In this document: one piece after another, positions 763-25,264 of the stretch
Layout of the letters: each line of letters begins with the position of its first letter
Position numbering within the stretch: the stretch's first letter is position 1
From: Candidatus Saccharimonadota bacterium
GTDB lineage: Bacteria > Patescibacteriota > Saccharimonadia > Saccharimonadales > Saccharimonadaceae
Reading direction: 5' to 3'
DNA: 32,000 bases
Assembly (NCBI GenBank): GCA_023898645.1
Contig: CP060232.1
Span: 720,001 to 752,000 of the forward strand
Position numbers and translations under genes: made by a program
Notes under the pieces: generated by a model
Seen by the model: the letters and a program-made list of their open reading frames with translations, nothing else
The model's database searches: none
What the model was told of the DNA's origin: nothing

Positions 763-913
763 TTTCGTATGTTGAATATTTCACCGTAATACCTCCTTAG
801 AATTGCTACGCTACAAAGTAGAGGTGTACCTTTGATGTGTCATAAAAATCATCAGGGTACATAGTACTTTTCCAAACTACAGCACGACAACACGCAATCA
901 GAAAGGTATCTTG

Positions 914-3244
914 ATGCGCTTCCGGAAAAACACGGAAACGACCATATCGGGACCAGTATTCTACGATGCCAAAGGCAAACGCTGGCATCGTGTCATGGAA
1001 AGCTTGCTTATCATGACCATTGTCATAGCAGCAGCGACATACTGGGCTGCGCCCCAGGCATTAGCGCCCCTTTGGAAGGAGTCGCTACATCAGGGCAACG
1101 GATTTCCGCGACAGCTCGCACATTCGTCAGAGCTAAAAAATATTCCCATACTCGGAACAGGCGACGGTGAAGTCTTGACTCGTATCGTTCGAGTCGAAAA
1201 GGATGGCGATACAGTCAACCTCATCGACCCCTTTACTGGCAACGTTTTGCGAACGGCACAACCTGGAGAAGATGAAGAAATCGGCAATAGTAAATACGCC
1301 CTTGACCACTTCGGGCAACCCGCAGACCATCAACTAATGCTGACGTTCGACGACGGACCCAGCGCCCGTTACACACCGGAAATACTGGATGTACTCGCCA
1401 AAGAGCACGTGCCAGCAACATTCTTTATGGTTGGAGCCAACATTGCAAAGAATCTGGACGTATTCAAGCGTGTCATCCGAGAAGGTCATATGGCGGGCAA
1501 CCACACACTGTTTCATATTGATTTCGACAAGCACTCGGATATCCGAAATCGTGAGGAGCTAATTGCTACCGATCGCATAATGCGAGCGGGCGCAAACTAC
1601 TCGTCACGGCTATTTCGTATGCCTTATGGAGATCCGGATAAAAATGCATTAGCAATGCTCCAGTCTCAACAACTAGGCTACATTCATGTCGACTTCGATC
1701 TTGATACGAAGGACTGGTCATATCCGCCTGGAGCAGACATTCCTGTTCCGCCGCTAGACGGCAAAGGGCATGTCGTTCTAATGCATGATGGCGGCGGAGA
1801 CCGATCGTCGACTGCCATTTTGCTTGAAAAATTCATCCAGGAAGCGAAGCGACAAGGTTACACCTTTAGCACGATTGCGCCGCTATTGCCCGAGGGATAT
1901 GTCCCTACTCACGGAGTAGCGCCGACTACTGCCGACCAAACAACACTACGAACGGTTCAGGTGTTTTGGGTCATTCCTAACAAAATGCTCGGATGGCTAT
2001 TTTGGTTCGGAGTAGGGTCGCTGTCTATCATGTCAGTGCTTTATCTGACACTAGCGCTCGCCAACAACCGTCGTCAGCACAAACGTAATTGGGTTAAAAC
2101 ACTCGACCATCATATGCCACATGTTAGTGTCGTCATGGCAGCATACAACGAAGAGAAGGTGATACGAAAAACCCTTAATACGCTACGCGCTAGCAACTAC
2201 CCGCAGTCCAAGCTTGAGGTAGTTGTCGTCAATGACGGCTCAAAGGACGGCACTCAAAAAGTGCTCGATGATTATGCGAGAAAATGGCCACAGCTTAAAG
2301 TGGTTCATCAGCCAAACGCTGGCAAGTCGTTTGCCATAAATAATGGCATATCACATGCGAGGCCAGAGTCGAAAATCATCGTGACTCTCGATGCAGATAC
2401 GTTGTTTGAACCGCAAACAATCCGTCTGTTGGTGCGACACTTCGTCAAGAAAAGTCACCGTCAGGATTCTAAGCCAGTTGGCGCGGTCGCAGGCCACGTG
2501 AAAGTCGGTAATCGTCGTAATATCATTACAGCATGGCAAAGCCTGGAATACATTTCAGGAATTTGCGTGACACGATTAGCGGAAGGAGCTATGGGTGCAA
2601 TTGCTATAGTCCCCGGCGCATGTTCCGCCTGGAGCCGTCGCGCGTTAGAGCAAATCGGTGGGTTGTCAGAAGATACGTTAGCCGAAGATGCTGATGCAAC
2701 TCTTCAACTACATCAGCTTGGGTACAGCGTGCTCCAAGAAAACACTGCCGTTGCTTACACTGAAGCGCCGGAATCAATCCGCACTCTGGCGAAGCAACGG
2801 TTGCGTTGGACTTACGGCAACGTCCAAGTACTTTGGAAGCATCGTTCGATGTTGATGCGACCAAAGTATGGGATGCTCGGGATGATTGCGCTACCATATG
2901 CGCTATTGTCTTTGATCGTTCCACTAATCTTCCTACCGTCGACGGTCATCGCAGCTGTCATCGGCTTGGCAAACGGTAACTGGCATAGCGTCGTGCTGTT
3001 CGCGGTATTTGTAATGACACTCCATATGGTCATATCGATTGTTGCGATAGTAGTAGCTCGAGAGCGAGCATGGCATCTACTAATCGTACCGATCTATCGA
3101 CTTATCTATGAGCCACTAAGAGCATACCTTTTGTACGCATCCTTATTACGGATACTACGAGGTACAGCTGCCAAGTGGAACAAGCTGGAGCGTCTTAACA
3201 GTGCCGCACTACAATCCCGCAGTAAGCTACCAGTAGCATCATAA
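914..3244 (+). CDS. Bifunctional polysaccharide deacetylase (CE4/NodB) / family 2 glycosyltransferase, membrane-embedded exopolysaccharide synthase
   Basis: ATG at 914; the ORF track starts at the in-frame TTG at 911. An N-terminal TM helix is followed by CE4 motifs LTFDDGP, GNHTLFH and RMPYG. The second half has GT2 motifs VVNDGSKDGT, LDADT (DxD) and QRLRW (QxxRW), flanked by several TM helices. Confidence 0.85.
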   Translation: MRFRKNTETTISGPVFYDAKGKRWHRVMESLLIMTIVIAAATYWAAPQALAPLWKESLHQGNGFPRQLAHSSELKNIPILGTGDGEVLTRIVRVEKDGDTVNLIDPFTGNVLRTAQPGEDEEIGNSKYALDHFGQPADHQLMLTFDDGPSARYTPEILDVLAKEHVPATFFMVGANIAKNLDVFKRVIREGHMAGNHTLFHIDFDKHSDIRNREELIATDRIMRAGANYSSRLFRMPYGDPDKNALAMLQSQQLGYIHVDFDLDTKDWSYPPGADIPVPPLDGKGHVVLMHDGGGDRSSTAILLEKFIQEAKRQGYTFSTIAPLLPEGYVPTHGVAPTTADQTTLRTVQVFWVIPNKMLGWLFWFGVGSLSIMSVLYLTLALANNRRQHKRNWVKTLDHHMPHVSVVMAAYNEEKVIRKTLNTLRASNYPQSKLEVVVVNDGSKDGTQKVLDDYARKWPQLKVVHQPNAGKSFAINNGISHARPESKIIVTLDADTLFEPQTIRLLVRHFVKKSHRQDSKPVGAVAGHVKVGNRRNIITAWQSLEYISGICVTRLAEGAMGAIAIVPGACSAWSRRALEQIGGLSEDTLAEDADATLQLHQLGYSVLQENTAVAYTEAPESIRTLAKQRLRWTYGNVQVLWKHRSMLMRPKYGMLGMIALPYALLSLIVPLIFLPSTVIAAVIGLANGNWHSVVLFAVFVMTLHMVISIVAIVVARERAWHLLIVPIYRLIYEPLRAYLLYASLLRILRGTAAKWNKLERLNSAALQSRSKLPVAS

Positions 3245-3253
3245 CCTGCGGGC

Positions 3254-3290
3254 GGGGCTTGCATGGCTAAAACCATGTAAGCCCCTTTTT
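3254..3290 (+). terminator. Rho-independent terminator of the CE4-GT2 gene
   Basis: 13-bp stem (GGGGCTTGCATGG / CCATGTAAGCCCC, one G-U pair), 6-nt loop, then TTTTT at 3286-3290. Confidence 0.85.
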
Positions 3291-3328
3291 CTATGCAAAT
3301 AAAACGACAAGGGTGTATTATAGCCTCA

Positions 3329-4261
3329 ATGACCGAGGCGTTATCAATTTCCGTAGACATAGACTCTAAAGAAAACAACAGGTCATTCGATGTGCTCGAG
3401 ACTTTATGTAATCCTGAGTTTGTTCAAGCATGGATTGACGCTGAAAAACATCTCAACGCCTTGTCGGCAAACAAGTCGGAACGACTAGATCAGCACCTTG
3501 ACGAATACAAATTAAAACTAAATCAGCTGCTCGAAGCCGATGAACTTATCTACCATCCGGCCGTCGCAACAGGTGCAGCGTATGCCATCGGCAAGAGCGG
3601 CTTAGACAAGTTTTATTTACACGACAAGATTACCCTCGACAACGTAGCATTACGGTACGGCGGTATCGATTTTGCCCCCATCCAGAACAGAAATGAAATT
3701 AAATATTGTGCCGCTTTTCAATTACTGCCGCTCAGTCAGTCAAATGATACGCACCATTATTGCGCGCCAATCGAAGACATTACCAAGCTTGAATTGCCAG
3801 ACCATCAAGTCCCAGATTTCAACCCGAATCAAATACAGAATGTTCTCAGAAATATATTGAATGACAGCAAACATTTTCGAGAAGATGAATCATTCAAGGC
3901 GAAAACACGAATGGAAAGAATGGTAGAAATCGAGGAAATGGCAATGAGATATACTGATGAACTGTCCTCCTTTATAAATCAGTACGTGCCTCTCTTGATA
4001 GATACAGACCGCTACGCCACATACAGCCCGGCTCTATCAAAAAAAGCCGACAATCGTACGCAACAAAATAAAGACCCACGAAGTCGTCATATTATTTCAG
4101 GGTGTTTAGTAGAAGTTACCTTCAGAACGCTTCAAGCGCTCAACCCGAATGTAGCACCTCTACTCGTCATCAATAACACTGAAAATGGAACCACGTACGA
4201 AATGCCGCTCGATGCAACACTCGAGCATTTCATACCGCTGCATACTACTGTTTACCGTTAA
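3329..4261 (+). CDS. Hypothetical protein, no recognisable motifs
   Basis: Long ORF (track start 3293). ATG 3329 (MTEALS...) is preferred because 3293 sits 3 nt after the upstream terminator T-tract and TATTAT (3316-3321) lies 7 nt before 3329. No signal peptide or TM helix seen. The 3' end overlaps the convergent gnd-like gene by 17 nt. Confidence 0.6.
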   Translation: MTEALSISVDIDSKENNRSFDVLETLCNPEFVQAWIDAEKHLNALSANKSERLDQHLDEYKLKLNQLLEADELIYHPAVATGAAYAIGKSGLDKFYLHDKITLDNVALRYGGIDFAPIQNRNEIKYCAAFQLLPLSQSNDTHHYCAPIEDITKLELPDHQVPDFNPNQIQNVLRNILNDSKHFREDESFKAKTRMERMVEIEEMAMRYTDELSSFINQYVPLLIDTDRYATYSPALSKKADNRTQQNKDPRSRHIISGCLVEVTFRTLQALNPNVAPLLVINNTENGTTYEMPLDATLEHFIPLHTTVYR

Positions 4262-5166: not shown

Positions 5167-7140
5167 TCACTTGCGACGTAATATTAACGCGGTACGCGTA
5201 GGAAGGTACAGCTTTATTCGATCGTCGGCAACATATGTCATCAAGACATCTAATCTATCAAAACCTCCAAACGCCGGATTATCAGTTGAGAGTACGACTT
5301 CATACTCGCCGCTAGGCACCCTTATGCCGTAATCAGTGAATGATTTTGTTGGGTGGAAATTATAGACGAATAATAAATCACCACGCATAAATGCAAGAAC
5401 GTGATCGCCGTCATTTGTCAGCACATACTCCGCATCGCCTTGCACTTCCTGAATAACCCGGAGCATAGATTTGTCAAAATCAGCGAGATAATGATATTTC
5501 AATTTTTGATCGTCTGCCAAGCTCCATTGTCGTCGCGCGTATTTATACGACCAGTCGTTGCCCTCGCGCGGGAAATCAATCCATTCAGGATGGCCGAACT
5601 CATTCCCCATAAAATTCAAATACCCGCCATGATGCATACTTGCAGTTAATAGCCGAATCATTTTGTGGAGCGCCAAAGCTCGATCGATGTTTATATTTTC
5701 ATCATCAACCATCATATGGTCATATATATCTTTATCAGCTAAGCGAAACACCAGCGTCTTGTCGCCAACAAGTGCCTGATCGTGACTTTCCGTATAATTA
5801 ATCGTTTTCTCCTCGGGTCGGTGCTGATTGAGTTCATGAAACAATTCAGACACATGCCACTGCTCGTCCTTTTTTTCTTTGACATATTTGATCCACAAAT
5901 CCGGAACACCCATGCTCAAGCGATAATCGAAGCCAAAGCCTCCATCCTTAATTGGCGCAGCGAGACCCGGCATGCCACTCATGTCTTCGGCAATCGTCAA
6001 CGCGCCAGGTTTCACTTTATGAATCAGTTCGTTTGCCAGTGTTAGATACGCCGCGGCATCCGCATCGGTATCCTGAAAATACATATCATAACTATCAAAC
6101 GCCCGCTCTAAGCCATGATGCGTATACAACATACTCGTCACACCGTCAAAGCGATAGCCATCAACATGAAATTCGTCCAACCAATACCGACAGTTGCTCA
6201 ACAGAAAATGCACCACTTCAGACTTGCCATAATCAAACACGCGAGAATCCCATTGACTATGATGGCCTCGATCGCCCTCATGAAAGAACTGTGTCAACGT
6301 TCCATCATAGCGGCTAATGCCTTCATTTTCGTTCTTAACGGCATGCGAGTGAACGATATCCATGATGACGCGAAGCCCGGCCCGATGAGCCGCATCAACC
6401 AATGCTCGAAAATCATCTGGCGTACCGAAACGTGAACTTGGCGCAAAAAAGCTCGAGACATGATAACCGAAACTACCATAGTAGGGATGTTCGGCAACCG
6501 CCATTAACTGAATGGTGTCGTAACCAGCGGCTTTAATTCGCGGGATGATTGTTTTTGTAAATTCCTTATAGGTGCTGACGGTTTCTTTTTCGCTACTCAT
6601 ACCCACATGCGCTTCATATATACGCGGTAAGCCAACTGACGGCACGAAGTTTACATCATGCCATTGATACGGTTTTGTCGGCTCCCATACTACTGCGTCA
6701 AATAATTTCGTAGCAGGATCTTGCACGACATACGTCGCCCACGCCGGTATACGATACCCATTTCCGCCATTCCAATGCATATGTAGTTTGTAATGGTCGA
6801 GATGGTTCAGGGCAATCGCGGGCAATCGCAGCTCCCACTCTCCGTGCTCTTTTTTCTCAAACGCATAAGCAGGGTCGTCTCTCCATTTTGAAAAATCACC
6901 ATGTAAATATAGTTGCGTTGCGGCAGGAGCCCATTCTCGCAGCACCCAGCCATTGTTTGTACGATGCAGTCCGAAGTACTGATACCCAAAAGCAAAACCG
7001 CTGACGGATCTCCCATCAAGAATCCGCTTGGCGTAGCTAGCGGCGTACTTCAATCGGGCCTGCAATTTGCTACGGTACGGAGCAAGCCATGGGTCGACCG
7101 TCGAAAGACGCTCGTCGGCAGGAAAATAAGGTGAAGTCAT
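5167..7140 (-). CDS. glgB: 1,4-alpha-glucan branching enzyme, GH13 eukaryote-type (GH13_8-like)
   Basis: GH13 conserved regions are present: DIVHSH (I), GYRFDGVTSM (II), IAEDMSGMP (III), YTESHDQ (IV). ATG 7140 (MTSPYF...) is preferred over the track start 7191, which is a GTG lying inside the neighbouring gene's terminator hairpin. Confidence 0.9.
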   Translation of the reverse strand: MTSPYFPADERLSTVDPWLAPYRSKLQARLKYAASYAKRILDGRSVSGFAFGYQYFGLHRTNNGWVLREWAPAATQLYLHGDFSKWRDDPAYAFEKKEHGEWELRLPAIALNHLDHYKLHMHWNGGNGYRIPAWATYVVQDPATKLFDAVVWEPTKPYQWHDVNFVPSVGLPRIYEAHVGMSSEKETVSTYKEFTKTIIPRIKAAGYDTIQLMAVAEHPYYGSFGYHVSSFFAPSSRFGTPDDFRALVDAAHRAGLRVIMDIVHSHAVKNENEGISRYDGTLTQFFHEGDRGHHSQWDSRVFDYGKSEVVHFLLSNCRYWLDEFHVDGYRFDGVTSMLYTHHGLERAFDSYDMYFQDTDADAAAYLTLANELIHKVKPGALTIAEDMSGMPGLAAPIKDGGFGFDYRLSMGVPDLWIKYVKEKKDEQWHVSELFHELNQHRPEEKTINYTESHDQALVGDKTLVFRLADKDIYDHMMVDDENINIDRALALHKMIRLLTASMHHGGYLNFMGNEFGHPEWIDFPREGNDWSYKYARRQWSLADDQKLKYHYLADFDKSMLRVIQEVQGDAEYVLTNDGDHVLAFMRGDLLFVYNFHPTKSFTDYGIRVPSGEYEVVLSTDNPAFGGFDRLDVLMTYVADDRIKLYLPTRTALILRRK

Positions 7141-7180
7141 TAGCTTTATGATACCACGCAAGACGCTCGACAAAAGCAAT

Positions 7181-7203
7181 GCCCGTGGCACGCGGCCACG
7201 GGC
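7181..7203 (-). terminator. Putative terminator hairpin downstream of hydrolase paralog 1
   Basis: GCCCGTGGC / GCCACGGGC 9-bp stem with a 5-nt loop. On the minus strand it is followed by ATTGCTTTTG, a weak U-tract. Confidence 0.5.
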
Positions 7204-7222
7204 AAATACTCTATCCGCTTAT

Positions 7223-8047
7223 TTAGCGATACTCTGGTGGAATTGGTACCAGTGTTGCACCCTGAGGTACTGGAATTGTACCGTCATACACTAGGTAGGT
7301 GACACCGTTCTCTGTAAATGCCTCGTCTGGCACTTCGCTAGGACTGATGACGCGGTGATTTTGGATGTTAAGACCATCGTTGATGATCTTGCCGATATCA
7401 CCGGCAGCGTTAGATGCCCATACATCATTCGCATCAAGCTTTTCAACCGTACCAGGGACCGGTGGAGTCTCTTGTATACCAAGAGAATCTGTGATGGGTT
7501 TAAACGATTGCGCTATAGGGCTTGCCAAAATTCCTGCAGAGCCGTTACCGTCACCAGAATTCATGACGTTGACGTAAATACCTTGGTTAGCCAAGTCAGC
7601 CGCTGCTCCGTTGGTTACAAAGGCGCCTTCAGAAAAGCCGTAAAGTGTGATGTCGGCACCTGAATGTGCATAGACACTAGCCTCAACCGCACTGATTCCC
7701 ATAGCAACAGACTGATTCGTTGGAACATTACCGACAATTGGACCCATCTGCGCAGGGTAGTTCACGTCAATAACCTCTTCACCCTGATACAATGTTCCGT
7801 TGTTCCATAGTTCATGCTCAAGTCCCTGACTAGTACCGTCTCCAGCACCGCCGACGATAATTGCAACATCGTAACCACTAGCTTGTGCAACACCTTCACT
7901 CATGAACAGACCTGCGCCAACTGCGGTAAGACCAACAGCGAGAGCTCCCACGCACTTCTTTAATGTGAGCCTCTTTTCGTTATCACTCTTCTCAGCAAAA
8001 TTGCTAAGATTATTCGTTTCGCCAGCTGATATGATCTGCCTTGGCAT
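7223..8047 (-). CDS. Secreted GxSxG alpha/beta-hydrolase-like protein, PE-PPE/cutinase-like family, paralog 1 (274 aa)
   Basis: Signal-peptide-like N-terminus ending AQA|SG. It carries the shared motif series VGGAGDG, VNYPAQMGP, YGFSEGA, PVPGT, DANDVWA and QNHR, in the same order as the three genes that follow. Confidence 0.7.
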   Translation of the reverse strand: MPRQIISAGETNNLSNFAEKSDNEKRLTLKKCVGALAVGLTAVGAGLFMSEGVAQASGYDVAIIVGGAGDGTSQGLEHELWNNGTLYQGEEVIDVNYPAQMGPIVGNVPTNQSVAMGISAVEASVYAHSGADITLYGFSEGAFVTNGAAADLANQGIYVNVMNSGDGNGSAGILASPIAQSFKPITDSLGIQETPPVPGTVEKLDANDVWASNAAGDIGKIINDGLNIQNHRVISPSEVPDEAFTENGVTYLVYDGTIPVPQGATLVPIPPEYR

Positions 8048-8332
8048 AATACAAACCCCTATTCCGCCCCCCCAGTTATTCGTTGTGAAGTGAGCATATT
8101 ATACTATTGCATCAATGTCAATATTATAATTATTACATTTTCTCAAAGGGGCAAATTATGGTAGTTACGGTGTTAAATTTATGCGACAATATCACATTTT
8201 CGATACAGCTAATACTGCTTTTAACGGATTGATATTGGGAGGATGCACTTTTGACAACAGTCTATATTAATGTAATTAGTATAAGCTTTATAAACCACCA
8301 CTTCACCGTTACTTGCTCAATACAAATAAAAA

Positions 8333-8369
8333 ACAATAACCCATCACATAGCCGGCAATGGGTTATTGT
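8333..8369 (-). terminator. Rho-independent terminator of paralog 2
   Basis: 12-bp perfect stem ACAATAACCCAT / ATGGGTTATTGT with a 13-nt loop. On the minus strand it is followed by TTTTTATTTG. Confidence 0.75.
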
Positions 8370-8408
8370 CACGATACGACGCTAAGTTACAGATCAACTT
8401 GCGATGGA

Positions 8409-9518
8409 TCAGTGGTGCGCAAACGTCGTAGGCTTTGCCACGAGCTGCACATTCGGAGTCACTGTTCCATGACCCGTATTAATCACATGCTTAGTTATTG
8501 TTGAGGCCGCAGATGAAACTTGGCTTGTGGCGTTCTGGACTGCTTGACCAGACGAAGCAACGCTATTCGTAACGGCGGTCGTCACGTCATTTACGACTGA
8601 TTTCACTGCCGACTCTACATTACTCTTAGACTCGTGGCGACTCTTGATTACGTTTAGCTTCTTCGTAGGATCTGGCTGCGGAGCAATGGTATTAAAGAAT
8701 GCATCACCAATAAATGTCGGATCAGCACCTGCCTCACGAATTGCACGGCTAATACCGTTAGTGTCGCTACCAAAGACATTGTAGGTTACGCCATCAACCA
8801 CGACAGTCTGATGCGGCTCGCCAGGAAATGGCATGCGATGGTCCTGAGGAATTCTGGCCATCTTGGTAATTTGGTCGCCAAGATTAAACGGATCAACGTT
8901 ACCAGTTGCATACCAGTCACCCTTGTCAAGATTCACAACAGTACCAGGAACTGGGTGAATCTGATTCGGACCAGGAATACCGATTAAGCCGGTAATAGGG
9001 CTGATAACACCTGCGAGTGGATGGTCTAGTAGACCAATTGGCGTCGTTGCATCGCCGGCAGTTTCAGGGTGGAAGTTAGCTGGTAGTTGACCGCCGTTTT
9101 CGGCAGCAAGACGCATACTAGCTTGATCAACACCAACAGCACCCTCAGAGAATCCATACGCACGAACACTCGGGTCTCCTTGATGTCGATGGTAGAAATC
9201 AACGATCTGGTTTGCTTGATCGTTGACCGAGTCAATCATTCGCTCGTTACCACAAACAGGAGCCAGAGCGCCAGACCACTGAACCTGGTAATTGTCAGCG
9301 CCATAGTCATACGTACCAGCTTGCTTAGCATGATCAACTGGGAACTGACTAGCACCGTCACATGCACCACCAACATACACGGTAGGGTCGGCGTTCGCTA
9401 CGGCGGTGCTATTAAAAATAAACCCTACAAGCGCAGCGCTAGCCAAACCGACTTTTACTGAACGTTTCAAGACGTCACTGTTCATATTTTTTTCTAAAGC
9501 GGGCCTATACTCGGCCAT
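8409..9518 (-). CDS. Secreted GxSxG alpha/beta-hydrolase-like protein, PE-PPE/cutinase-like family, paralog 2 (369 aa)
   Basis: N-terminus MAEYRPALEK..., hydrophobic core, then ANA|DP cleavage-like site. Motifs VGGACDG, WSGALAPVCG, YGFSEGA, HPVPGT, DKGDWYA and QDHR are present. The C-terminal tail is Ser/Thr/Val-rich. Confidence 0.7.
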   Translation of the reverse strand: MAEYRPALEKNMNSDVLKRSVKVGLASAALVGFIFNSTAVANADPTVYVGGACDGASQFPVDHAKQAGTYDYGADNYQVQWSGALAPVCGNERMIDSVNDQANQIVDFYHRHQGDPSVRAYGFSEGAVGVDQASMRLAAENGGQLPANFHPETAGDATTPIGLLDHPLAGVISPITGLIGIPGPNQIHPVPGTVVNLDKGDWYATGNVDPFNLGDQITKMARIPQDHRMPFPGEPHQTVVVDGVTYNVFGSDTNGISRAIREAGADPTFIGDAFFNTIAPQPDPTKKLNVIKSRHESKSNVESAVKSVVNDVTTAVTNSVASSGQAVQNATSQVSSAASTITKHVINTGHGTVTPNVQLVAKPTTFAHH

Positions 9519-9592
9519 AAAATACCCCCATTCTGCCCACCAGTGCTACATAATTGTTGCGCCAGAATATAGTATTTCGCATGGCATGTCAA
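9519..9592 (-). promoter_or_regulatory. Sigma70-like promoter plus conserved ~50-nt leader of paralog 2
   Basis: Minus-strand TTGACA (9592-9587), 15-nt spacer, TATATT (9571-9566). The leader is GGCGCAACAATTATGTAGCACTGGTGGGCAGAATGGGGGTATTTT, then ATG. It is nearly identical to the region upstream of paralog 3. Confidence 0.6.
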
Positions 9593-9839
9593 AATTAAAA
9601 ATCTCATATAAATCATGGCGGATTAGGTGTGAAACAGATTAAAATATGCGATATGTTTTTTAAACAACAATACTATAAACTAGCTGTCAAACATGCGAAA
9701 TATAACAGGTGCGCCAGAATTCTTTGTAGAGGAAAGACATGGTCGATACCCCAAAGAATAAATAGTAAATTACAGACACGAACCAAGCAGTTGTATTGCG
9801 CACAACCGCCTATAGAATCTATGTGACCTACGACACAAA

Positions 9840-9878
9840 ATGGCAACACCCGCAACAAGTAGTCGCGGGTGTTGCCAT
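9840..9878 (-). terminator. Rho-independent terminator of paralog 3
   Basis: 14-bp perfect stem ATGGCAACACCCGC / GCGGGTGTTGCCAT with an 11-nt loop. On the minus strand it is followed by TTTGTGTCG. Confidence 0.75.
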
Positions 9879-10010
9879 GGTTAGCAGCAGCTTAATGCTG
9901 CAAACTAGGAATTTGGTTCCGACTGACTGCAGAATCTACAGCCCCTCTAGTCGGCTGGCGCTTGTGTCATATCCGGAGACAACGTTATCCGTGGTATTGT
10001 CGTCAACGAA

Positions 10011-11090
10011 TTAACAAGGAGCGGTACCAGGTGTCCAGTACTGTGAGCCGTCCTCTGCGAAACATGGCTGCTCACCGAAGAATTCCGGAGCTGAAAGATG
10101 AACTGGAGCCGCAGCAGGAGCTGGTGGGTTCAGCACATCACGAGGAGCAGGACCGACAATGTTCAAATCAGGAACAACTGGACCACTTTGAGGAAGTGGA
10201 GCAGGTGGGTTCAATACGTTCGCCGGGTCGTCCTGTGGAGCAATCGTGTTAAAGAATGGAGTTCCGATAGGACCTGGATTTGAACCGACTTCTTGAATAG
10301 CCTGATTGATTGCGCTATTGCGATCGTCGCCGTAAATCTGGTAGTTAACACCGTCACGCTGAACATTTACGCTTGGTTCGTTACCGATGTTTGGAATTCG
10401 ATGGTCTTGACCGACACGCGCAAACTTAGTGATGTCTTCACCTAAGTTAAGCGGAGCAACGTTCATGGTCGCATATGGGTCACCCGCATCCATAACCTCT
10501 GTCATGCCAGCTACTGGATGTAGTTCATCAGTAGTTGGGATACCAAGCATACCGTTGGTAATTGGCTGAATAGCCTTAGCAATTGGATGATTCTGGATTC
10601 CTACAGGGTTCCAACCATCACCAATGGCAGTTACGTGAACGTTACCAGGCAATTGTCCACCATGGTCTGCCGCAAGCTTCATAGCGGCCCAGTCGACGAC
10701 ACCCGCACCAAGTGAAAATCCTTCAACGTTCACTTGATCCCAGCTGTTTTGATAATATGCGTCAACAACTTTTTGACCACCGTCTGCGATTGATGCGCCG
10801 GTCTGAGTACCAAAGCCGTCGTCGCAAATTGGCGCCATTGAGGCAGGGTAGTTAATTTGAATATTATTTGCGCCAAAGTTGTAACGGCCGTCCTGAATAG
10901 CACGATCAACTGGAAGTTGGCTAGTTTTGTCGCATGCTCCGCCTACGTAAATGTTCGTATCGGCGTTTGCAGAACCAATACCGTTAAGGATGGCTCCTGT
11001 CATAGCCGCACCAGCTAAACCAAGTACAACAACTCGGTTAAGCGTGTTCTTGTTAGTAATTTTTTCTAAAGCAGGCCCGTATTTGGCCAT
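10011..11090 (-). CDS. Secreted GxSxG alpha/beta-hydrolase-like protein, PE-PPE/cutinase-like family, paralog 3 (359 aa)
   Basis: N-terminus MAKYGPALEK... with ANA|DT cleavage-like site. Motifs VGGACDK, INYPASMAPICD, EGFSLGA, HPVAGM, DAGDPYA and QDHR are present. The C-terminus has VLNPPAP repeats and a terminal Cys pair. Confidence 0.7.
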   Translation of the reverse strand: MAKYGPALEKITNKNTLNRVVVLGLAGAAMTGAILNGIGSANADTNIYVGGACDKTSQLPVDRAIQDGRYNFGANNIQINYPASMAPICDDGFGTQTGASIADGGQKVVDAYYQNSWDQVNVEGFSLGAGVVDWAAMKLAADHGGQLPGNVHVTAIGDGWNPVGIQNHPIAKAIQPITNGMLGIPTTDELHPVAGMTEVMDAGDPYATMNVAPLNLGEDITKFARVGQDHRIPNIGNEPSVNVQRDGVNYQIYGDDRNSAINQAIQEVGSNPGPIGTPFFNTIAPQDDPANVLNPPAPLPQSGPVVPDLNIVGPAPRDVLNPPAPAAAPVHLSAPEFFGEQPCFAEDGSQYWTPGTAPC

Positions 11091-11164
11091 AAAATACCCC
11101 TATTCTGCCCACCAGTACTACATAATTGTTGCGCCAGAATATAGTAATTTGCAAAATATGTCAA
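11091..11164 (-). promoter_or_regulatory. Sigma70-like promoter plus conserved ~50-nt leader of paralog 3
   Basis: Minus-strand TTGACA (11164-11159), 15-nt spacer, TATATT (11143-11138). The leader is GGCGCAACAATTATGTAGTACTGGTGGGCAGAATAGGGGTATTTT, then ATG. Confidence 0.6.
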
Positions 11165-11372
11165 AATGAAAAATCTAACATTGCTATTGAGGTGCACCAC
11201 CTTACAAACTAAGTAGCGCCTGAAAATAAACCGCAGCTTTCATCAATCACTTTGCTAGATGTGACCGATGTAAAAAATGCAAAGTGTTATTTATACAACA
11301 CTTATATAACATACGTGCGGACAGCGCAAAATATAGTTCTAATGTTTCACTTTTGATTGCAGATATAAAAAA

Positions 11373-11391
11373 TCCGCGCCATATGCGCGGA
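11373..11391 (-). terminator. Rho-independent terminator of paralog 4
   Basis: TCCGCGC / GCGCGGA 7-bp GC-rich stem with a 5-nt loop. On the minus strand it is followed by TTTTTTATATC. Confidence 0.75.
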
Positions 11392-11411
11392 CATCTTATT
11401 CAGGTAGACTA

Positions 11412-13370
11412 TCACCCCTGACGAAGATTGCCAAGGAATTGCCGAACAGCTTGTCGAATAGGTCCGTTACCATTGCCAAAATTCGGCAATAGCGGAGCTA
11501 CTGGAGCTGGCGCGGGAACAGGTGCGGGTGCGGGAGCTGGAGCAGGATTGCTAATATTGTTGATAAAATTATTCACGATATTACGCAAAGGCGCTGGCGC
11601 TGGAGCGGGAACAGGAGCGGGTGCGGGAGCTGGCGCAGGAGTAGCTGGGGGCGTATAAGTATTCACTGGGGCGGGAGCTGGCGCAGGAGGTACATATGGA
11701 TGCACCGGCGGCGTATACGTATGATGTACTGGCGGCTGAAGATTGAGATTGATACCGTTATTCCTCGCGGCGCCATTGATAAAATCAACAACCGGATGAT
11801 TGGTTTCGCTCGGTAACGCCCTAGAAATATCATTAAACATCTTGTTAACATCATTAGTTACTGCATGAACAGCAGCAGGAATCTTAGTCGGATCTTGCAT
11901 AGCCTGCGCAATCAATGTTCCATCAGTATTCCCAAGATTCAGGCCATCCTGAATAACATCCGTCACCGGCTGCGGTACTGCAGCCATAATTCGCTCAGGT
12001 ACAGGGCTACCGCCTAGCGACTGACTAATTCCATGCGCCAAATCAGCCTGAGCTTTGGCTGCATTTGGCGGTGGAGGTAGCGGGCCGCTGCCTGGCGTAT
12101 TGCTGTTGATCGGTATTACGTCATTAAAGAAGTCATTGTAACCACTCATCACTGGAACACCCGCACCTTGCTGGATGAGCTGCGTAAACGGATGAACACC
12201 ATAATCCCACTCATTATGAATGACGCCATTTGAATCAGTCCATGTGACATGCGGCGCATTCGGATCCTCGACGACATGCCCGTAACCAAGGTCTATCGCC
12301 TGCGCGAAATTACCAAGCGGAGTCTGATTGCCACCGTTGCCCCATACGTCGTTTTGTGACGTATTGACAATTGTTCCGGGAGGAAGTGGCACCTCATCTG
12401 GCGAAATACCATCCAACTTCAGAAATGGCCTCACCGCTTGAGCAGAATCACTATTCCAAAAACCTTGACTGGAAACGGGAGAGCCATTCAGTACGAGGTG
12501 GACATTTGCCGGCATAGCTCCGCCGTTATTTGCCGCTACCATTTGTGCCGTCTTAGCGGCGGCGATGGTTCCTTCAGAAAAGCCTTCTATAGTAATTTGT
12601 GCATTTGAATCATAAGACAATTGCTGTTCGATTTGCGAATATGCAGATTGAGCGCCGATGTCTGTCGAGACATCCAGTGTCGGACCAGGACTGACTGGTG
12701 CGATCGATGCGGGGTATTGAATACCGACATAGTTTGGGTCACCCGCATGCCCACCGAGTACGCCGGCCGCGGTCGGGTCACCGAAACCACCAAAGACATA
12801 GTTGGTCGTATTAACAGTCAGTCTAACATCGTAATGACGATAAGGTCTCATCGGATCGGTGTGCCATACATCGATACCGCGCATACGCATGTACATCAAA
12901 CCAGCGTCAACAGCGAGAAGACCGCCAATAACAGAGGCGCCCATAACTCGATCCTGATTGCGACGAGCCTTTTTATATAATCGCTCAAAACGGCTGTCAT
13001 CATCGCTTGCAGCGTATTTTTCTTGTCGCGCATCACGCTTTGCTATACGTCGCCTCTGGCGCCTAGATGTTTTTTCTTGGACACCCCAAAAAGCGAGAGC
13101 TGCCGTCTGACCCATTGCAGCACGTAAGCGACCCATGCGAGATGTCGGCTGTTCTTCATCCGATTCTTCGTCAACAACTAATTCGATCTCTGTAAACGCA
13201 TAATTCCGGTCACCCTCAAACACCGGTGCCGCAAAGCTCTCTTCAAGCCCAGCTATCTCTAACGAACGCTCATCATTAATCAAAGTTTCGTAGGTTGCGA
13301 AATCAAAGTCCAAATTAAGCTCATTTGGATTACAGTTATCAGTAGTGGAGCTCGTTTCTATGCTCAACAT
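11412..13370 (-). CDS. Membrane-anchored GxSxG alpha/beta-hydrolase-like protein, PE-PPE/cutinase-like family, paralog 4 (652 aa) with a Pro/Ala-repeat C-terminus
   Basis: Domain order is: acidic N-terminal ~80 aa, an Arg-rich stretch ([16 protein letters not shown]), a single TM helix ([20 protein letters not shown]), then the family motifs. Those motifs are [36 protein letters not shown] and YGHV. A long C-terminal region follows, ending in duplicated [17 protein letters not shown] blocks. Confidence 0.7.
11495..11700 (-). repeat. In-frame (GCN-CCN)n Pro-Ala repeat blocks within paralog 4
   Basis: There are two ~45-bp near-identical blocks at about 11501-11546 and 11591-11639, plus a partial third at about 11668-11690. 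They encode [17 protein letters not shown], a spacer ([13 protein letters not shown]), then [18 protein letters not shown]. Confidence 0.8.
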
Positions 13371-13382
13371 AATATTTATGTT

Positions 13383-13411
13383 AATTTACCACACTTTTTC
13401 AAAAATGTCAA
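13383..13411 (-). promoter_or_regulatory. Putative promoter of paralog 4
   Basis: Minus-strand TTGACA (13411-13406), 17-nt spacer, TAAATT (13388-13383). Only 12 nt separate it from the ATG at 13370, and there is no Shine-Dalgarno. Confidence 0.5.
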
Positions 13412-14857: not shown

Positions 14858-15562
14858 ATGAAACAAGCTATAAAAAGATTTTTCATTGTCGGAGCCGCAA
14901 CAACTATTATGATGGCGCCAGCTATCGCAAGTGCCGACGACAACATAACGACAAGTGACGACAGCACGACAACAAGTAGCGAAAGCGAACCGACATCGAG
15001 CCCTACAAGCGAACCGCAAAGTCGCGCGGAAAGACAGTATAGAGAGAAAATCGATGCTCGGCTTGAACAGCTCAGACAGAACCGAAAAGCAAAATCAACC
15101 GAATCGGAGTCGGACCTTCATTCCAAACTAGATACCGCAAAGAAAAAGATTTGTGAAAATCGAGCAAGTAAGATCGACGAACTTATGTCTACCATGAAGA
15201 CGCGTCGCCAAAACGTCTACGACCGCATAAATAAGATAGTAACTGCCGTCGAGAACTTCTATGTATCAAAAGGCCTTTCCGTTAGTTCTTACAGCGATCT
15301 AGTTGCAGCCGTCAACGCAGCTCAATCAGCAACTCAGACAGCAATGGCAGCGGAACAAGCCGTACCAAACCTCGACTGTAGCGGAGATCACCCTCGCGCA
15401 GACGTAGCCAGCTTCAAAGAAAAACGCCAAGAAAGCATCGACGCCATGAAAGCCTATCGTGACGCCGTTAAGGACCTAATCAAGGCTGTCAAATCAGCTG
15501 CAGAAGCGGCAAATCCAACACCGACAGCAACACCTCAGGAGGGCTCAAGCAATGCACAATAA
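14858..15562 (+). CDS. Secreted hypothetical protein: Ser/Thr-rich N-terminal region followed by a helical region
   Basis: AAGGA Shine-Dalgarno upstream. Signal peptide MKQAIKRFFIVGAATTIMMAPAIASA|DD. A DDSTTTSSESEPTSSPTSEP tract is followed by a Lys/Glu/Ala-rich helical sequence with two Cys residues. Confidence 0.65.
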   Translation: MKQAIKRFFIVGAATTIMMAPAIASADDNITTSDDSTTTSSESEPTSSPTSEPQSRAERQYREKIDARLEQLRQNRKAKSTESESDLHSKLDTAKKKICENRASKIDELMSTMKTRRQNVYDRINKIVTAVENFYVSKGLSVSSYSDLVAAVNAAQSATQTAMAAEQAVPNLDCSGDHPRADVASFKEKRQESIDAMKAYRDAVKDLIKAVKSAAEAANPTPTATPQEGSSNAQ

Positions 15563-15833
15563 AAACGGATTCTCCATCATTGAAGCAGTTGTTCTAATGG
15601 CAGTTGTCGTTATAGTCGGGACACTTGGTTACATGGCCTACAACAACTTTGTCGCCAATAAAGACAGCGGGGCTGCGTCGACCACGGACACCGCCTCAAA
15701 AAGCATATCCACATCACCTGTTGTGATCAAGTCAAATTCAGATCTCAACAGTATAGCGAACGAACTTGATTCGATGTCACTCGAAGACAGCAGTAGCAGT
15801 AGTCAATTCGATACGGCTGCTAGCTCGTTTTAA
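15552..15833 (+). CDS. Prepilin-type N-terminal cleavage/methylation domain protein (type IV pilin / pseudopilin-like, 93 aa)
   Basis: MHNKNG|FSIIEAVVLMAVVVIVGTLGYMAY matches the class III signal (G|F, Glu at +5, hydrophobic helix). A strong AGGAGGG Shine-Dalgarno lies 9 nt upstream. It overlaps the preceding gene by 11 nt. Confidence 0.8.
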   Translation: MHNKNGFSIIEAVVLMAVVVIVGTLGYMAYNNFVANKDSGAASTTDTASKSISTSPVVIKSNSDLNSIANELDSMSLEDSSSSSQFDTAASSF

Positions 15834-16445: not shown

Positions 16446-17489
16446 ATGGCAAATCCTTTAGAAAATTACGCAGCGCATACTAACAGTAATGAGCTAGCGT
16501 TATCTAGCCGTTTCGAGAACTACGCTTTAGATAATCCAAAATCAATAAAGCAAGACACTTACCAGGATAATACTTACCGGACCGAGCGTTATACAATGCA
16601 CGACGGTACAAATTATCTCGTCACTCACTCAGAACTAGGACGGCGCGCGGTACGAGACAGTAGCGATATAATGTCGCTTGAAACATCAGCCTGGTTTACA
16701 AAATTCGGTGGTTTCAATGAACGACGCCAACGTGCGCTCGCCGAACATTTCGGAATACCTTCGGTGTTTATAGGCGTTCAACAAAACGCTGAAAAAATAG
16801 GTGACATAAAACAACACGCTCGCAACATGCTAGCCATCCATGCGCATGTCGCCATTCGTTTGGGTAACGACCCTGAAAACGTCATCTTAAATGGCGTGTC
16901 GCGCGGGGCGATGAGTGCCGACACGGCCCAAGCTATAGCTCATGAGCACGACACGAAAGTTATATTCAACGACAGTCTTGTTCCATGTATGCCGCACGGG
17001 GTGTCGATTCCAAAATTCCTTGGCGGAATAAAAGACACGATGCCAAGTGAATTTACTGCCGTACGTTCCCTCAGACTCCCTGCTTCTATACTTTTGCACT
17101 ATCGAAATACGGTTGACGCGTCTTTGTTTGGCTTGTTTCAGCAACTAAAAGAGACGCCGACTCTCATGGCAGGGCAGTTAGGGCGTGCCGTTCGTTCAAA
17201 CCCAGACAAGGAATCATTCTTCGGCTATCAAACAGTCTACGAGGGCGATACCCTCAGCCAAGGTGAACGCTTCATGAAGCTATACAAAGATCATCCTTAC
17301 ACAAAAGTTGACCTTATCCCCAAGGGTGGACATCTTAGCTGCATTTCCAGCGAAGCTTATTTTGCCTGGAAGGACCGCATGGAAACAATTACGAATATCT
17401 TACACGAGGATCCTTCACGTCGATTGCTTGCCGCCAGGTCGCTATACGAACTAGCCGTCGCCGAAAATCCAGTCTTTGAAAAAGAATAA
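16446..17489 (+). CDS. Putative alpha/beta-hydrolase-fold protein, function unknown
   Basis: Strong AGGAGG Shine-Dalgarno 6 nt upstream. A nucleophile-elbow-like LNGVSRGAMSA (GxSxG) and a late KGGHLSC His are present. No signal peptide. Confidence 0.5.
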   Translation: MANPLENYAAHTNSNELALSSRFENYALDNPKSIKQDTYQDNTYRTERYTMHDGTNYLVTHSELGRRAVRDSSDIMSLETSAWFTKFGGFNERRQRALAEHFGIPSVFIGVQQNAEKIGDIKQHARNMLAIHAHVAIRLGNDPENVILNGVSRGAMSADTAQAIAHEHDTKVIFNDSLVPCMPHGVSIPKFLGGIKDTMPSEFTAVRSLRLPASILLHYRNTVDASLFGLFQQLKETPTLMAGQLGRAVRSNPDKESFFGYQTVYEGDTLSQGERFMKLYKDHPYTKVDLIPKGGHLSCISSEAYFAWKDRMETITNILHEDPSRRLLAARSLYELAVAENPVFEKE

Positions 17490-20912: not shown

Positions 20913-23900
20913 CTACCATGTAGTCAGCGATGCGCGGACCCATGTGTTTGTTGCAACGCAGATATATACGTATGATGAATCCCACGCGACGGTACCCGTA
21001 GTACCTGCACTTGATGCAGACGCAGGCGCACCACCAGAACCAATCACGGGCGCTGTCAGTGTTGGACTTGTAAGGGTTTTATTCGTCAGTGTTTGAGTGC
21101 CAGTAGTAGTTACAACTGGCGCCCCACCAGCCGTCACGCTAGAAGTCTGTGCATTGACAGAAGCTCCAGTAGGAACAGTTCCTTGGAAAGCGACTCCAGG
21201 CGTATACGCCAAAGTACCTACATGGGTGTATCTAGATATTTCCGAAACAACAATTGCTGAACCATTATTATATGCTTTTATCCAGAGCTCGAAAGCCGCA
21301 CCAGAACCATCTGAAATAATCTTGAAACTGTCCGCCCCCAAAGCCGTTCCGGCAGCCTTGGAAAGCAACTCAATAGAAGCTGAACTCGTGTTGGAAGTAA
21401 TCCCAGCCTCAAGCGCTACAATCGCTGAAGTGTTGTGGGCAAAAGAAACAAAACTAAGACAAAGACTTATCCGATCCAAAGTGGTGTTGCCGGGGGTATA
21501 CGTAAGAACTTTCGTCCATTGCCCCGAAACTGTAGACAGAGAAGTCCAAACCTTTCTTGCCGCATCTGGTGTTGCACTGGCAGGAATGTCGGTAATAGTG
21601 TTGTTTGCACCAGACAACGTCTTATTAGTAAGGGCTTGTGTACCGGAAACAGTGGCGACTTCAACACCATTTGCCTGCACAACCCCCGTACCCTTGGTTT
21701 TTATATTGAATCCTATATGAGTGTCAGACCCGTACGACTCCAAATAGGGCGCAACGCCCGTTGCGCTATTGTAAATAGTAGTAGCATTTACGGCGCCACT
21801 GTTTGCAGTAACATCGAGAACTCCTGTACCATTAGTCGCAAGAATTCTATTCACCTTCGGACTTGTTAATGTCTTGTTCGTAAGCGTCTGAGCTGACGAA
21901 ACATCTACCGCATCGACGCCATTTATCTGAACAGTACCCGAACCTTGCGATGCCAAACTCAAATTTACATTCGTATCACTGCCGATAGCCCTTAGGGTCA
22001 CTGGCGCACCGCCGGTGGCGCGGTTTGATATCTGCAAATAATTAACGGCACTAGCGACTGCGTTAAAAGCCATCATCACATTGGCATTGGCATCACGAAT
22101 GTACCCGTCGGATATGATAGGTCCCGATATGCTCGGACTTGTCAGCGTCTTGTTCGTAAGCGTCTGAGCACCGGTGGTTGTAGCTACCGGAACGCCATTT
22201 TGATTAAGTGTACCGGTACCCTTGGGAACCATATTGATACTGATGTTGCTATCACCTCCAGTTGCAGTAAACGCAACCGGCGCAGAATTTGAACCGTATA
22301 CAGCACCACCGCCACGAGGAAGATATCCGTCGGCACGACCCGGACTATTATATGCATATGAGAACAGTGAGCTAATCCGAACCTGAGCATCCCATGGTCG
22401 CCCAAGTGTATAACGAATCTTCGTGTAGGTCGTGCCGTCACCAGTGTAATAATATCTATGAACCGGATCAGAATTGTTCGTAACCGAATAAACTGTTGAC
22501 CAGCCGCCCTTGTATATTTCAATCTGTACATCCTTAGTGCCCCAACCATGCGGGAACACGATACCAACATTACAACCATAGCGCTGCAAGATAGACGGGG
22601 CTATATCAACAGTGATGATGTAAGTGTCTGTTGACACTGCTGGATTGTCCAGACAAAATGAAGTATCCGCTCTGAACCAGTTGTCCGCCACTGTACCACC
22701 ACCGACATTGTAAAAGCCCGTGCCGCTACCATAAGTATTGAATGGCAAGCCGTTCTTTTGTACATCTATCGCACCACCGCGCAAAAGATTGTAGGTAAGA
22801 TCAGAGCTATAGTTTGGTTCAAATGTATACCAACCGTTTTCGGGATTAGTGTTAAGCGATACGCTTTTTAGAACATTTGCGGAATTGTATACGGTAACCT
22901 CAGCACGATTTGCAAGGTCTGTAGTCAGGCTCGTAACCGATGATTGAGCGATATTAGATAGAGTGTTTGATGAACCACTGATTGTCTTATTCGTCAGCGT
23001 CTGCGTGCCTGTAGTAGTAACGACGGGTACATAATTGACCCTGACCTCACCCGTACCCTTTGAGTTGAGCTCCAGATGAATATTTGCATCGTTGCCCAGT
23101 GCCTGAATTAGTGGCCCGCCACCAGCCACCTGCCCAAGAATCCTGACATAGTTAACTGAAGACGCATAAGCTGAAACCTGAAGGGAAGGCCTGTTGAAGG
23201 GGCTAAGATATACACTCTCCCACTGATCAGAAAAAGAAACGTGTTTATTTCCGGCAGGGTCATAAATCGCGTCTATCTTCGGGTTTGTCAGGGTCTTGTT
23301 GGTGAGGGATTGCGTACCGGTCGTAGTGACAACATCAACACCGTTAGCCTGAACTGTGCCGGTACCTTTGGTTGTGAGGTTGAGGTTGATATTAGTGTCG
23401 GTGCCGCTAGCCATCAGATATGGTGCGTTACCGGTGGTGTGAGCTACTGCATAAAGATAATTGACAGTGCTATCCGCTTGGAATCCGGCCCTGAACGCCA
23501 CCGAAGTGGGGCTACGCAACTGGAAACCTCCGACTCCCTTAGAGTTAAGGTTAATACCGATATCAGTGTCGCTACCGCTGGCCCACACCCCAATGGACTG
23601 ACCGGCAACGCTATTTGCCACAGTAAAGTAGTTGGCCGCGCTAGCAAGAGAACCAATTTCTATCGCATTATTGCCAAAAGCATCTTTGACCATGTTGATC
23701 TTCGGATTTGTCAGGGTCTTGTTGGTGAGCGTCTGCGTACCAGAAGTAGTTACGACTTCTACGCCGCCAGTATAGAGCTTCCCTGTACCCTTGGGGTTGA
23801 GGCTGATACCGATATTCGTGTCAGTACCCTGTGCGTATAGACCAACATTCGTACCAGTAATACTAGCGACGGCCTGCACATAGTTCACCGCAGACGCAGG

Positions 23901-25235: not shown

Positions 25236-25264
25236 AGTATAGATAAGAAATAGGGAAGTGTCAA
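25236..25264 (-). promoter_or_regulatory. Putative sigma70-like promoter of the giant gene
   Basis: Minus-strand TTGACA (25264-25259), 17-nt spacer, TATACT (25241-25236), about 55 nt upstream of the ATG at 25181. Confidence 0.55.

Follow-up and report, generated by a model that had tools for sequence, protein, structure and literature searches.

How the epibionts of the Candidate Phyla Radiation (CPR)/Patescibacteria recognize and open their hosts is largely unknown. Candidatus Mycosynbacter amalyticus, a Saccharimonadia parasite of Gordonia and the one cultured parasite of mycolic-acid bacteria considered here, needs the mycolic acid of its host, and its mechanism of lysis is stated to be unknown (PMC11880426); it also carries an arabinogalactan-degrading D-arabinofuranosidase of the GH172 family, GII36_05205 (PMC10115798). 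Here we describe an array of four genes in a 32,000-nucleotide stretch of DNA from a Candidatus Saccharimonadota bacterium (contig CP060232.1 of GenBank assembly GCA_023898645.1, positions 720,001 to 752,000 of the forward strand; hereafter the window), whose predicted products are kin of the phage enzymes that cut mycolic acids off the wall and which offer concrete, expressible candidate effectors. Two further groups enter the comparison: the mycobacterial PE/PPE proteins exported by ESX/type VII systems, in which the PE-PPE domain sits C-terminal to a PE or PPE domain, and the cutinases, which have conserved disulfide bonds.

Four predicted exported serine-hydrolase paralogs in an array

The array consists of four minus-strand open reading frames (ORFs) coding for proteins of 274, 369, 359 and 652 aa, namely A274 (7223-8047), B369 (8409-9518), C359 (10011-11090) and D652 (11412-13370), all of which had been listed in a first-pass annotation made from the sequence alone and all of which are present. 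Their paralogy, proposed in the same annotation, is borne out by an all-against-all BLASTP comparison in which each of the six pairs is significant: B369 is the paralog closest to C359 (E=2e-90, 49% identity), followed by the pairs A-C (E=2e-21), A-B (E=1e-19), B-D (E=3e-14), A-D (E=1e-11) and C-D (E=4e-10). The ordered series of motifs ascribed to the four proteins is likewise found in each of them, with two departures from the form first given, as QWSGALAP replaces (N/Q)YPA..P in B369 and AGM replaces PG(T/M) in C359. Within this series lies a candidate Ser-Asp-His triad (S139/D208/H231 in A274, S124/D201/H227 in B369, S126/D204/H230 in C359 and S265/D341/H365 in D652), all three residues of which, in keeping with the original proposal, are invariant across the paralogs. 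Among 142 relatives aligned to the domain, the Ser is retained in 142/142, the Asp in 140/142 and the His in 134/142.

Inspection and hydropathy agree with the prediction of three signal peptides of the AXA type and one N-terminal membrane anchor. A274, the minimal secreted paralog with a signal peptide and a catalytic domain only, shows an h-region followed by AQA|S, and the predicted signal peptides of B369 and C359 both end in ANA|D. D652 has an Arg/Lys-rich N-terminus and a single transmembrane (TM) helix at ~142-160, residues 1 to ~141 being predicted as cytoplasmic. Beyond the catalytic domain the tails are unrelated, as had been claimed: there is none in A274, a Ser/Thr/Val-rich one in B369, a linker with two copies of VLNPPAP followed by a Cys-pair tail in C359, and a long one with (PA)n blocks in D652. 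In the last of these the catalytic domain (~188-430) is followed by a helical domain (437-537), a disordered Pro/Ala-rich tail and a short C-terminal helix, with the (PA)n blocks encoded by GGAGCG/GGAGCGGGAGCA tandem repeats (11503-11689, minus strand). Both mature A274 and the D652 ectodomain are devoid of Cys, and in both B369 and C359 the domain contains a single Cys pair (C53 and C89). Where D652 begins is uncertain. Its residues 1-78 are acidic and modelled at very low confidence (start region 13136-13411), and the exact 652-aa sequence is absent from the protein collection, in which the other genes of the same metagenome-assembled genome (MAG) are present; hence, the annotated start may differ.

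In Pfam searches, A274 (33.3 bits) and C359 (27.2 bits) match the PE-PPE family (PF08237) above its gathering cutoff of 21. B369 has no Pfam match by itself, and D652 has no PE-PPE match and scores 14.1 bits (E=0.045) against Cutinase (PF01083), the gathering cutoff of which (25.9 bits) is reached by none of the four paralogs. Among 26 diverse family members, 17 match PE-PPE and 6 match Cutinase at E<=0.01. No PE or PPE domain was detected by Pfam in the four proteins, whose N-termini are of the Sec-signal type or a TM anchor, and an NCBIfam scan of the four gave nothing meaningful. A search against PHROGs linked C359 to the lysis family phrog_102 (E=1.2e-7), with the matches of A274 and B369 lying near noise. 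NCBI names A274 and C359 'PE-PPE domain-containing protein' and B369 hypothetical; given that two of the genes already bear this label, the family call itself is not new.

AlphaFold (AF2) models were obtained for A274, from a 16-sequence alignment (mean predicted local distance difference test score, pLDDT, of 81, exceeding 90 over residues ~60-270), and for D652 (catalytic domain at a pLDDT of 80-96, helical domain at 65-85). Both are alpha/beta hydrolases with a GxSxG motif and the ordered Ser, Asp and His, and in the A274 model a strand (E132-138) and a helix (H140-154) meet at the Ser (S139), as in a nucleophile elbow. That the three residues come together in space is supported indirectly, through their canonical places in the secondary structure, their alignment with known catalytic residues and their near-invariance among relatives. 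Foldseek searches of the PDB with A274 recovered Rv3802c/Culp6 of Mycobacterium tuberculosis (5w95; E=1e-5) and then MSMEG_6394 as the best matches, with cutinases, acetyl xylan esterases, type II thioesterases and lipases further down; the corresponding search with D652 recovered LysB of mycobacteriophage D29 (3hc7; E=7.7e-4), followed by 3aja (MSMEG_6394) and 5w95 (Rv3802c). Identity in these fold alignments is just 13-19%. In the viral structure library BFVD, A274 is matched best by phage proteins (E=1e-8 to 1e-3), namely a hydrolase and an esterase from Mycobacterium phages, a PE-PPE protein from a Gordonia phage and several LysB proteins. At the profile level, the 26-sequence family profile matches 5w95 among PDB sequences (E=2e-6) with GFSEG placed on the catalytic GFSQG, the alignment with D29 LysB places the family Asp on that of GDMYAS, and an hhalign comparison of the family profile A6 with LysB of the M. 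abscessus prophage prophi91-3 yields 94.2% probability (E=1.2e-7) over 183 columns. Pairwise BLAST of the family against LysB is not significant.

The resemblance to PE-PPE and cutinase-like enzymes that had been proposed from the order of motifs thus survives both the Pfam and the AlphaFold/Foldseek comparisons, through significant PE-PPE profile matches for A274 and C359 and alpha/beta-hydrolase fold matches to Rv3802c, MSMEG_6394 and D29 LysB. Judged from sequence and models, the four genes code for exported serine-hydrolase paralogs, which form a small divergent branch of the PE-PPE/LysB/Culp group of alpha/beta hydrolases. A HMMER scan of 1.84 billion cluster representatives recovered 191 proteins of the family at E<=1e-3, 113 of them at E<=1e-10. 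Two architectures predominate: short exported forms of ~230-410 aa, and forms of 500-880 aa in which a cytoplasmic N-terminus of 100-260 residues and a single TM helix precede the domain, with a long tail after it. Nearly all relatives have either a signal peptide or a TM anchor. Word-indexed protein searches recovered close relatives only, with the 26-sequence profile adding next to nothing, and a search of genome contigs with a B/C-type alignment recovered just 2 loci.

A C-terminal tail and phage lysis genes suggest a link to mycolic-acid bacteria

C359 terminates in a Cys-pair tail (FFGEQPCFAEDGSQYWTPGTAPC; 10014-10082, minus strand), the only copy in the window. The pattern spans ~25 residues, P-x-F-[FPW]-G-E-x-P-C ... 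Y-[FYW]-T-P-G-x-A-P-C directly followed by the stop, and it ends 17/166 of the family proteins examined. These include B-like and D-like homologs from other genomes, which indicates that the tail is a portable module. By scanning metagenome contigs, we recovered 25 loci encoding it (L010-L034), always 0-4 residues from the stop codon. Only 3/25 of these also encode a hydrolase domain (GC 0.49-0.54); the other 22 lie on DNA of 62-71% GC, and most of them code for small secreted proteins composed of a signal peptide, a 'ICGDVGGRHVSVGGC' loop, an Ala/Gly linker and the tail. Exact look-ups revealed that such small tail proteins are listed at NCBI under Mycobacterium sp., Mycolicibacterium sp. and M. 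gordonae. A hidden Markov model (HMM) built from the tails of the CPR hydrolases only scores the mycobacterial proteins at 27-45 bits, and none of 30,000 composition-matched shuffles exceeds 10.4 bits; when scaled to a database of 5.8 billion proteins, the best of these scores correspond to E-values of ~1e-5 to 1e-6. Neither Pfam nor NCBIfam has a model for the tail or its mycobacterial carriers, the 'Excalibur' label attached by UniRef to one mycobacterial tail protein was not reproduced by Pfam, and tblastn of a mycobacterial tail protein against plasmids returned no match.

A scan of viral contigs for the tail uncovered a 43-kb contig (L035) with a 285-aa family member (2227-3084), which combines a signal peptide, a GFSIG motif and the aligned Asp and His with the terminal tail 'PSFFGEQPCEGGYFTPGDSPC'. 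This protein scores 46.8 bits against an HMM of the four window paralogs and is recovered by BLASTP with C359 (E=4e-15), A274 (E=5e-7) and a short family representative (E=3e-27). Its gene lies directly 3' of an endolysin gene and 5' of genes for small TM proteins (cassette 872-4196). The endolysin contains a Pfam Rv2525c-like domain (E=7e-22), matches a lysis PHROG (E=6e-35) and shares 57% identity with the lysin A encoded by an M. abscessus prophage, whose genes run in the order lysin A, lysin B, hypothetical gene, holin; 101/102 of its phage matches are to phages of Gordonia, Rhodococcus, Nocardia or Mycobacterium. On a second viral contig (L038; 1733-3852), a 74%-identical copy of the family member (3001-3852) is placed just after an endolysin gene (PHROG E=3e-64). 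Both are IMG/VR contigs from a single metagenome, 3300036829, and neither family protein has a PHROG match or a tblastn match among GenBank phages. In both cassettes, a member of this family follows the endolysin where a recognizable LysB is missing. From their sequences and gene neighborhoods, they look like an undescribed type of lysin B. The tail is hence common to three groups of proteins: the CPR hydrolases, the small secreted proteins of Mycobacterium/Mycolicibacterium and the two phage proteins occupying the lysin-B slot.

Evolution of the locus

The array is located between a tRNA-U5 methyltransferase-like gene and glgB/6PGD, with the synteny kept across genomes. At the syntenic locus, copy number varies from 2 to 4: D and C types are found in L001 and L002, D and A types in L007/L008 and all four in the window, with the D type present in every syntenic relative. 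Flanking genes of the window are 68-90% identical to those of its relatives, and the C type reaches 79-82% in the syntenic relatives (72-84% for C359 orthologs), to be compared with 49% for the A type and 31-46% for the D type. As dS is saturated at all available distances, we compared dN only and give no dN/dS: within one and the same pair of genomes, A and D have dN values of 0.49 and 0.51, as compared with 0.19 for GlgB, which amounts to a ~2.6-fold faster evolution of these two types relative to the flanking genes. The set had initially been described as diversifying, which fits the rapidly evolving A and D types but not the C type, which keeps to the rate of the flanking housekeeping genes. 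The copy-number variation and the divergence of A and D suggest the kind of evolution seen in host interactions. We observed no GC anomaly in the array genes or the tail, on which ground a recent horizontal transfer was rejected, and no phage genes near the array.

Transcription signals and a shared leader

Promoters and terminators were called as consensus matches and are accordingly predictions. Each gene is preceded by a sigma-70-like site that agrees with the consensus at 10/12 positions (an exact TTGACA, with 17 nt as the spacer) and is followed by a hairpin with a T-run, which supports the earlier claim of individual terminators, at least three individual promoters and no operon, and extends the promoter-like sites to all four genes. 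The site of D652 (13383-13411, minus strand, as are all signals described here) reads TTGACA-17-TAAATT with a TG extension, and its -10 ends 13 nt 5' of the ATG, so that the mRNA would be nearly leaderless. Those of C359 (11136-11164; TTGACA-17-TATTCT), B369 (9564-9592; TTGACA-17-TATTCT) and A274 (8093-8121; TTGACA-17-TATGCT) share an identical distance of 46 nt between the end of the -10 and the ATG. Counted in total, promoter-like sites in the array region do not exceed the shuffle expectation; strict TTGAC[AT]-N16-18-TAnnnT sites number 7 in the entire window, and 4/7 are the array promoters. The terminator-like elements comprise a hairpin and T-run 20 nt past the stop of D652 (11372-11392), a 17-bp hairpin and T-run 133 nt past that of C359 (9840-9878), a 16-bp hairpin and T-run 39 nt past that of B369 (8332-8370) and a 10-bp GC-rich hairpin 19 nt past that of A274 (7180-7204). 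The last overlaps the longest possible start of GlgB (GTG 7191; region 7140-7204). Near-identical contigs call the GlgB start 17 codons later (657 vs 674 aa), in which case the A274 terminator would be intergenic.

Between the -10 and the ATG, A274 has a leader motif, ACAAY..TAAC..G(G/T)GGG.(A/G)GAAT(A/G)GGG (8057-8086), with further copies 5' of B369 (9526-9557) and C359 (11098-11129); it occurs at only these three places in the window and is kept 5' of A/C-type orthologs in other genomes. The B369 and C359 leaders are nearly identical, although the proteins are 49% identical. No conserved RNA fold was found in the A/B/C leader (-1 kcal/mol, no covariation), and the motif could perhaps be a ribosome-binding-site context or an operator. 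With a predicted promoter and terminator for each gene and a leader shared by A, B and C, expression of the array could be both high and individually tuned. An Rfam scan of the window gave no match within the array, the sole match being the single tRNA gene at 25407-25479 (plus strand), which is accompanied by two of the seven strict TTGACA-type sites (25236-25264, minus strand, and 25278-25306, plus strand).

Functional predictions

The relatedness of the family to mycobacterial and phage enzymes that act on a waxy envelope renders the array a good candidate for the attack of a parasite on a host with such an envelope. Drawing on sequence, models and analogy, we posit, at slightly better than an even chance, that these esterases act on ester-linked lipids in the outer envelope of a mycolic-acid actinobacterial host. 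By analogy with phage LysB and Culp, candidate substrates would be mycolyl-arabinogalactan, trehalose mycolates or related glycolipids. Esterase action on these might loosen or breach the mycomembrane at the site of contact, and might possibly release lipids that the parasite cannot make. A274, B369 and C359 would be released once their signal peptides are cleaved, with the disulfide-type tail of C359 plausibly targeting the enzyme to the host envelope or retaining it there. D652, in contrast, would stay in the membrane of the parasite by means of its TM helix, with its catalytic domain facing outward, followed by the helical domain and the Pro/Ala stalk. The first-pass annotation had spoken of a host/prey envelope attack toolkit, a notion strengthened by the phage relatives in the lysin-B slot and the sharing of the tail with mycobacteria, though it is still an inference. 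More tentatively, and with rather less than even confidence, we propose that a previously unrecognized LysB-like family and its tail are common to CPR/Saccharimonadia-like parasites, to phages of mycolic-acid bacteria (mycolata), where the family replaces the canonical lysin B, and to mycobacteria with their small secreted proteins, all of which meet at the outer envelope of mycobacteria; the tail would then be a device for targeting to, or retention in, the mycomembrane or the arabinogalactan layer, and the array would serve the parasite to breach this layer.

Several observations weigh against a mycolic-acid host as the target. The fold does not fix the substrate, given that Rv3802c, the closest solved structure, is described not as a mycolyl esterase but as an enzyme with phospholipase/thioesterase activity. 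The Pfam match spans only positions 3-110 of the 228 in the PE-PPE model, with B369 and D652 below the cutoff, and tblastn of A274 and a phage family member against 50,697 GenBank phages found no match, which places the family far from the characterized LysB proteins. Moreover, the C type, with a dN of 0.16-0.17, evolves no faster than GlgB, the array resides in a conserved housekeeping context rather than a lysis cassette, and the known relatives of the MAG were recovered from soil, rivers and wastewater, with no established tie to mycolata.

CPR bacteria are generally unable to make their own fatty acids or phospholipids, and the array could encode scavenging lipases or phospholipases that free acyl chains or lysolipids for uptake from the membrane or wall lipids of any host, irrespective of mycolic acids; export of the enzymes, predicted strong promoters and a small genome are all compatible with this, as are the closest structures, which include lipases, type II thioesterases and Rv3802c, a reported phospholipase A/thioesterase. 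We nevertheless consider scavenging unlikely, since it leaves unexplained the sharing of the tail with Mycobacterium proteins and with lysis genes of mycolata phages, and also the rarity of the family (191 representatives) if the need is common to all CPR. Alternatively, the proteins might be active on the parasite's own surface, as acyltransferases or esterases by which it is built or remodelled, perhaps using host lipids, in the manner of the cutinase-like Chp1/Chp2 and some PE-PPE-domain proteins of mycobacteria. Anchoring of the D type in the parasite's own membrane, its presence in every syntenic relative, housekeeping-like constraint on the C type, and a locus among housekeeping genes near a glycosyltransferase-deacetylase fusion would favor such a role. 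Nonetheless, it appears quite improbable to us, as the phage relatives in lysis cassettes point to a destructive rather than a biosynthetic role, and as the ~2.6-fold faster evolution of the A and D types would be unusual for core envelope biosynthesis; copy number, moreover, varies between 2 and 4.

The two remaining explanations fit the evidence poorly. The similarity in sequence and fold to cutinases of CE5, to acetyl xylan esterases and to feruloyl esterases, together with the provenance of the relatives from soil and water, could indicate generic carbohydrate or polyester esterases of the cutinase, acetyl-xylan or feruloyl type that degrade environmental polymers as food; yet the best matches are consistently mycobacterial and phage rather than fungal enzymes, the disulfides of cutinases are absent, with no Cys at all in mature A274 or the D652 ectodomain, and CPR episymbionts are not known to be free-living polymer degraders, all of which make this explanation very improbable. 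That the genes are domesticated or decaying remnants of phage LysB without a current role draws on the phage members of the family, and strikes us as barely credible when set against an invariant triad, intact ORFs with a promoter and terminator each, retained synteny between housekeeping genes, and a setting free of phage genes or GC anomaly.

If the proposed action on mycolic-acid envelopes is correct, the family could serve as a genomic marker that predicts mycolata hosts for uncultured Saccharimonadia-like CPR lineages. It would also represent a lysin B of a new type, and could supply enzymes to be used on the mycobacterial envelope or on the Gordonia that cause foaming in wastewater plants. 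The short tail module common to mycobacterial and phage proteins is directly testable for envelope binding. Should the mycolata link fail, the family would still stand as a rare and clearly delimited group of PE-PPE-like hydrolases beyond Actinomycetota. In the literature searched, we found no paper that connects Patescibacteria or Saccharibacteria with enzymes of the PE-PPE or cutinase-like kind, and no prior account of a CPR-specific expanded and variable array, a membrane-anchored long form, a tail shared with mycobacteria or family members in a phage lysin-B slot.

Neighboring genes and source organism

Near the array, the plus strand encodes a 777-aa fusion of a polysaccharide deacetylase domain and a chitin/PNAG-synthase-like family-2 glycosyltransferase (GT2; 911-3244). 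On the other side are a gene for a 234-aa secreted Ser/Thr-rich protein (14858-15562, plus strand), with a predicted signal peptide ending in ASA|DD and orthologs 46-49% identical, and, with its start overlapped by the former, a gene for a 93-aa type IV pilin-like protein with a 'GFSIIE' prepilin-type N-terminus (15552-15833, plus strand). A 347-aa protein encoded at 16446-17489 (plus strand) contains a GVSRG motif resembling a nucleophile elbow, has no signal peptide or Pfam match, and may be another divergent hydrolase; it evolves fast, sharing only 31% identity with the protein at the syntenic position in L001. An ORF of 1422 aa (20913-25181, minus strand) codes for a Thr/Ala/Gly/Ser-rich protein without a Pfam match or TM helix, starting with 'MARLPTPGGDSGNWGTILNTFL' and ending in '...YVYICVATNTWVRASLTTW'. 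It resembles phage tail-fibre-like or large surface proteins, and may be an adhesin.

The contig of 1,134,346 bp and the pilin-like gene bear out what had been said of a small genome carrying such a gene. GenBank labels the MAG (proteins USN96161-USN96180) 'Candidatus Nomurabacteria bacterium', and for its closest relatives the labels are 'Candidatus Saccharibacteria bacterium' and 'Patescibacteria group bacterium'; the helicase of the MAG falls into one cluster, at >=90% identity, with a protein labelled 'Candidatus Saccharibacteria bacterium'. The label Nomurabacteria is probably unreliable at the class level, with the phylum being clear, and the organism is probably a streamlined, Saccharimonadia-like member of the CPR/Patescibacteria.

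Comparison with known systems

Among the characterized enzymes, phage LysB (D29 gp12, 3hc7; prophi91-3 gp61) shares with the array a cutinase-like alpha/beta-hydrolase domain with G-[FY]-S-x-G, a preceding YPAxxxP and an alignable Ser and Asp. It is also the best PDB fold match of D652, and members of the family fill the lysin-B slot in the two phage contigs. The window genes differ in being chromosomal genes of a CPR bacterium, present in four copies with Sec signals or a TM anchor, and in lying outside a lysis cassette with lysin A and holin, a setting found only for the phage branch of the family (L035 and L038). Furthermore, the one LysB compared in this respect shows neither a Cys-pair tail nor a helical domain or Pro/Ala stalk.

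Rv3802c (Culp6)/MSMEG_6394 is the best solved match by fold and by profile (E=2e-6), with its GFSQGA elbow aligned, and Rv3802c carries an N-terminal membrane anchor as does D652. Nevertheless, the organisms belong to different phyla, fold-alignment identity is 13-19%, and the four paralogs fall below the Pfam Cutinase cutoff. As for the wider cutinase/Culp assemblage, 5w95 and 3aja rank first or among the first matches of each model with fungal cutinases next, but the cutinase-type disulfides are absent in A274 and D652. With the PE-PPE proteins the array shares the order of Ser, Asp and His; A and C, but not B and D, score above the curated cutoff, and 17/26 relatives match the profile at E<=0.01. 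Unlike the PE-PPE proteins, the window proteins are found outside Actinomycetota, have Sec signals and no sign of ESX export, lack the N-terminal PE or PPE domain, and align to just the first half of the Pfam model.

A further parallel is with Ca. M. amalyticus. This organism has an abundant 61.5-kDa 'alpha/beta hydrolase domain protein' (QHN43198.1), which we regard as a lead only. Its GH172 enzyme differs from the proteins of the array in being a glycosidase and not an esterase; it sets a precedent in that a Saccharimonadia parasite possesses an enzyme family otherwise typical of Mycobacteriales and directed at the wall of mycolata (PMC10115798, PMC11880426).

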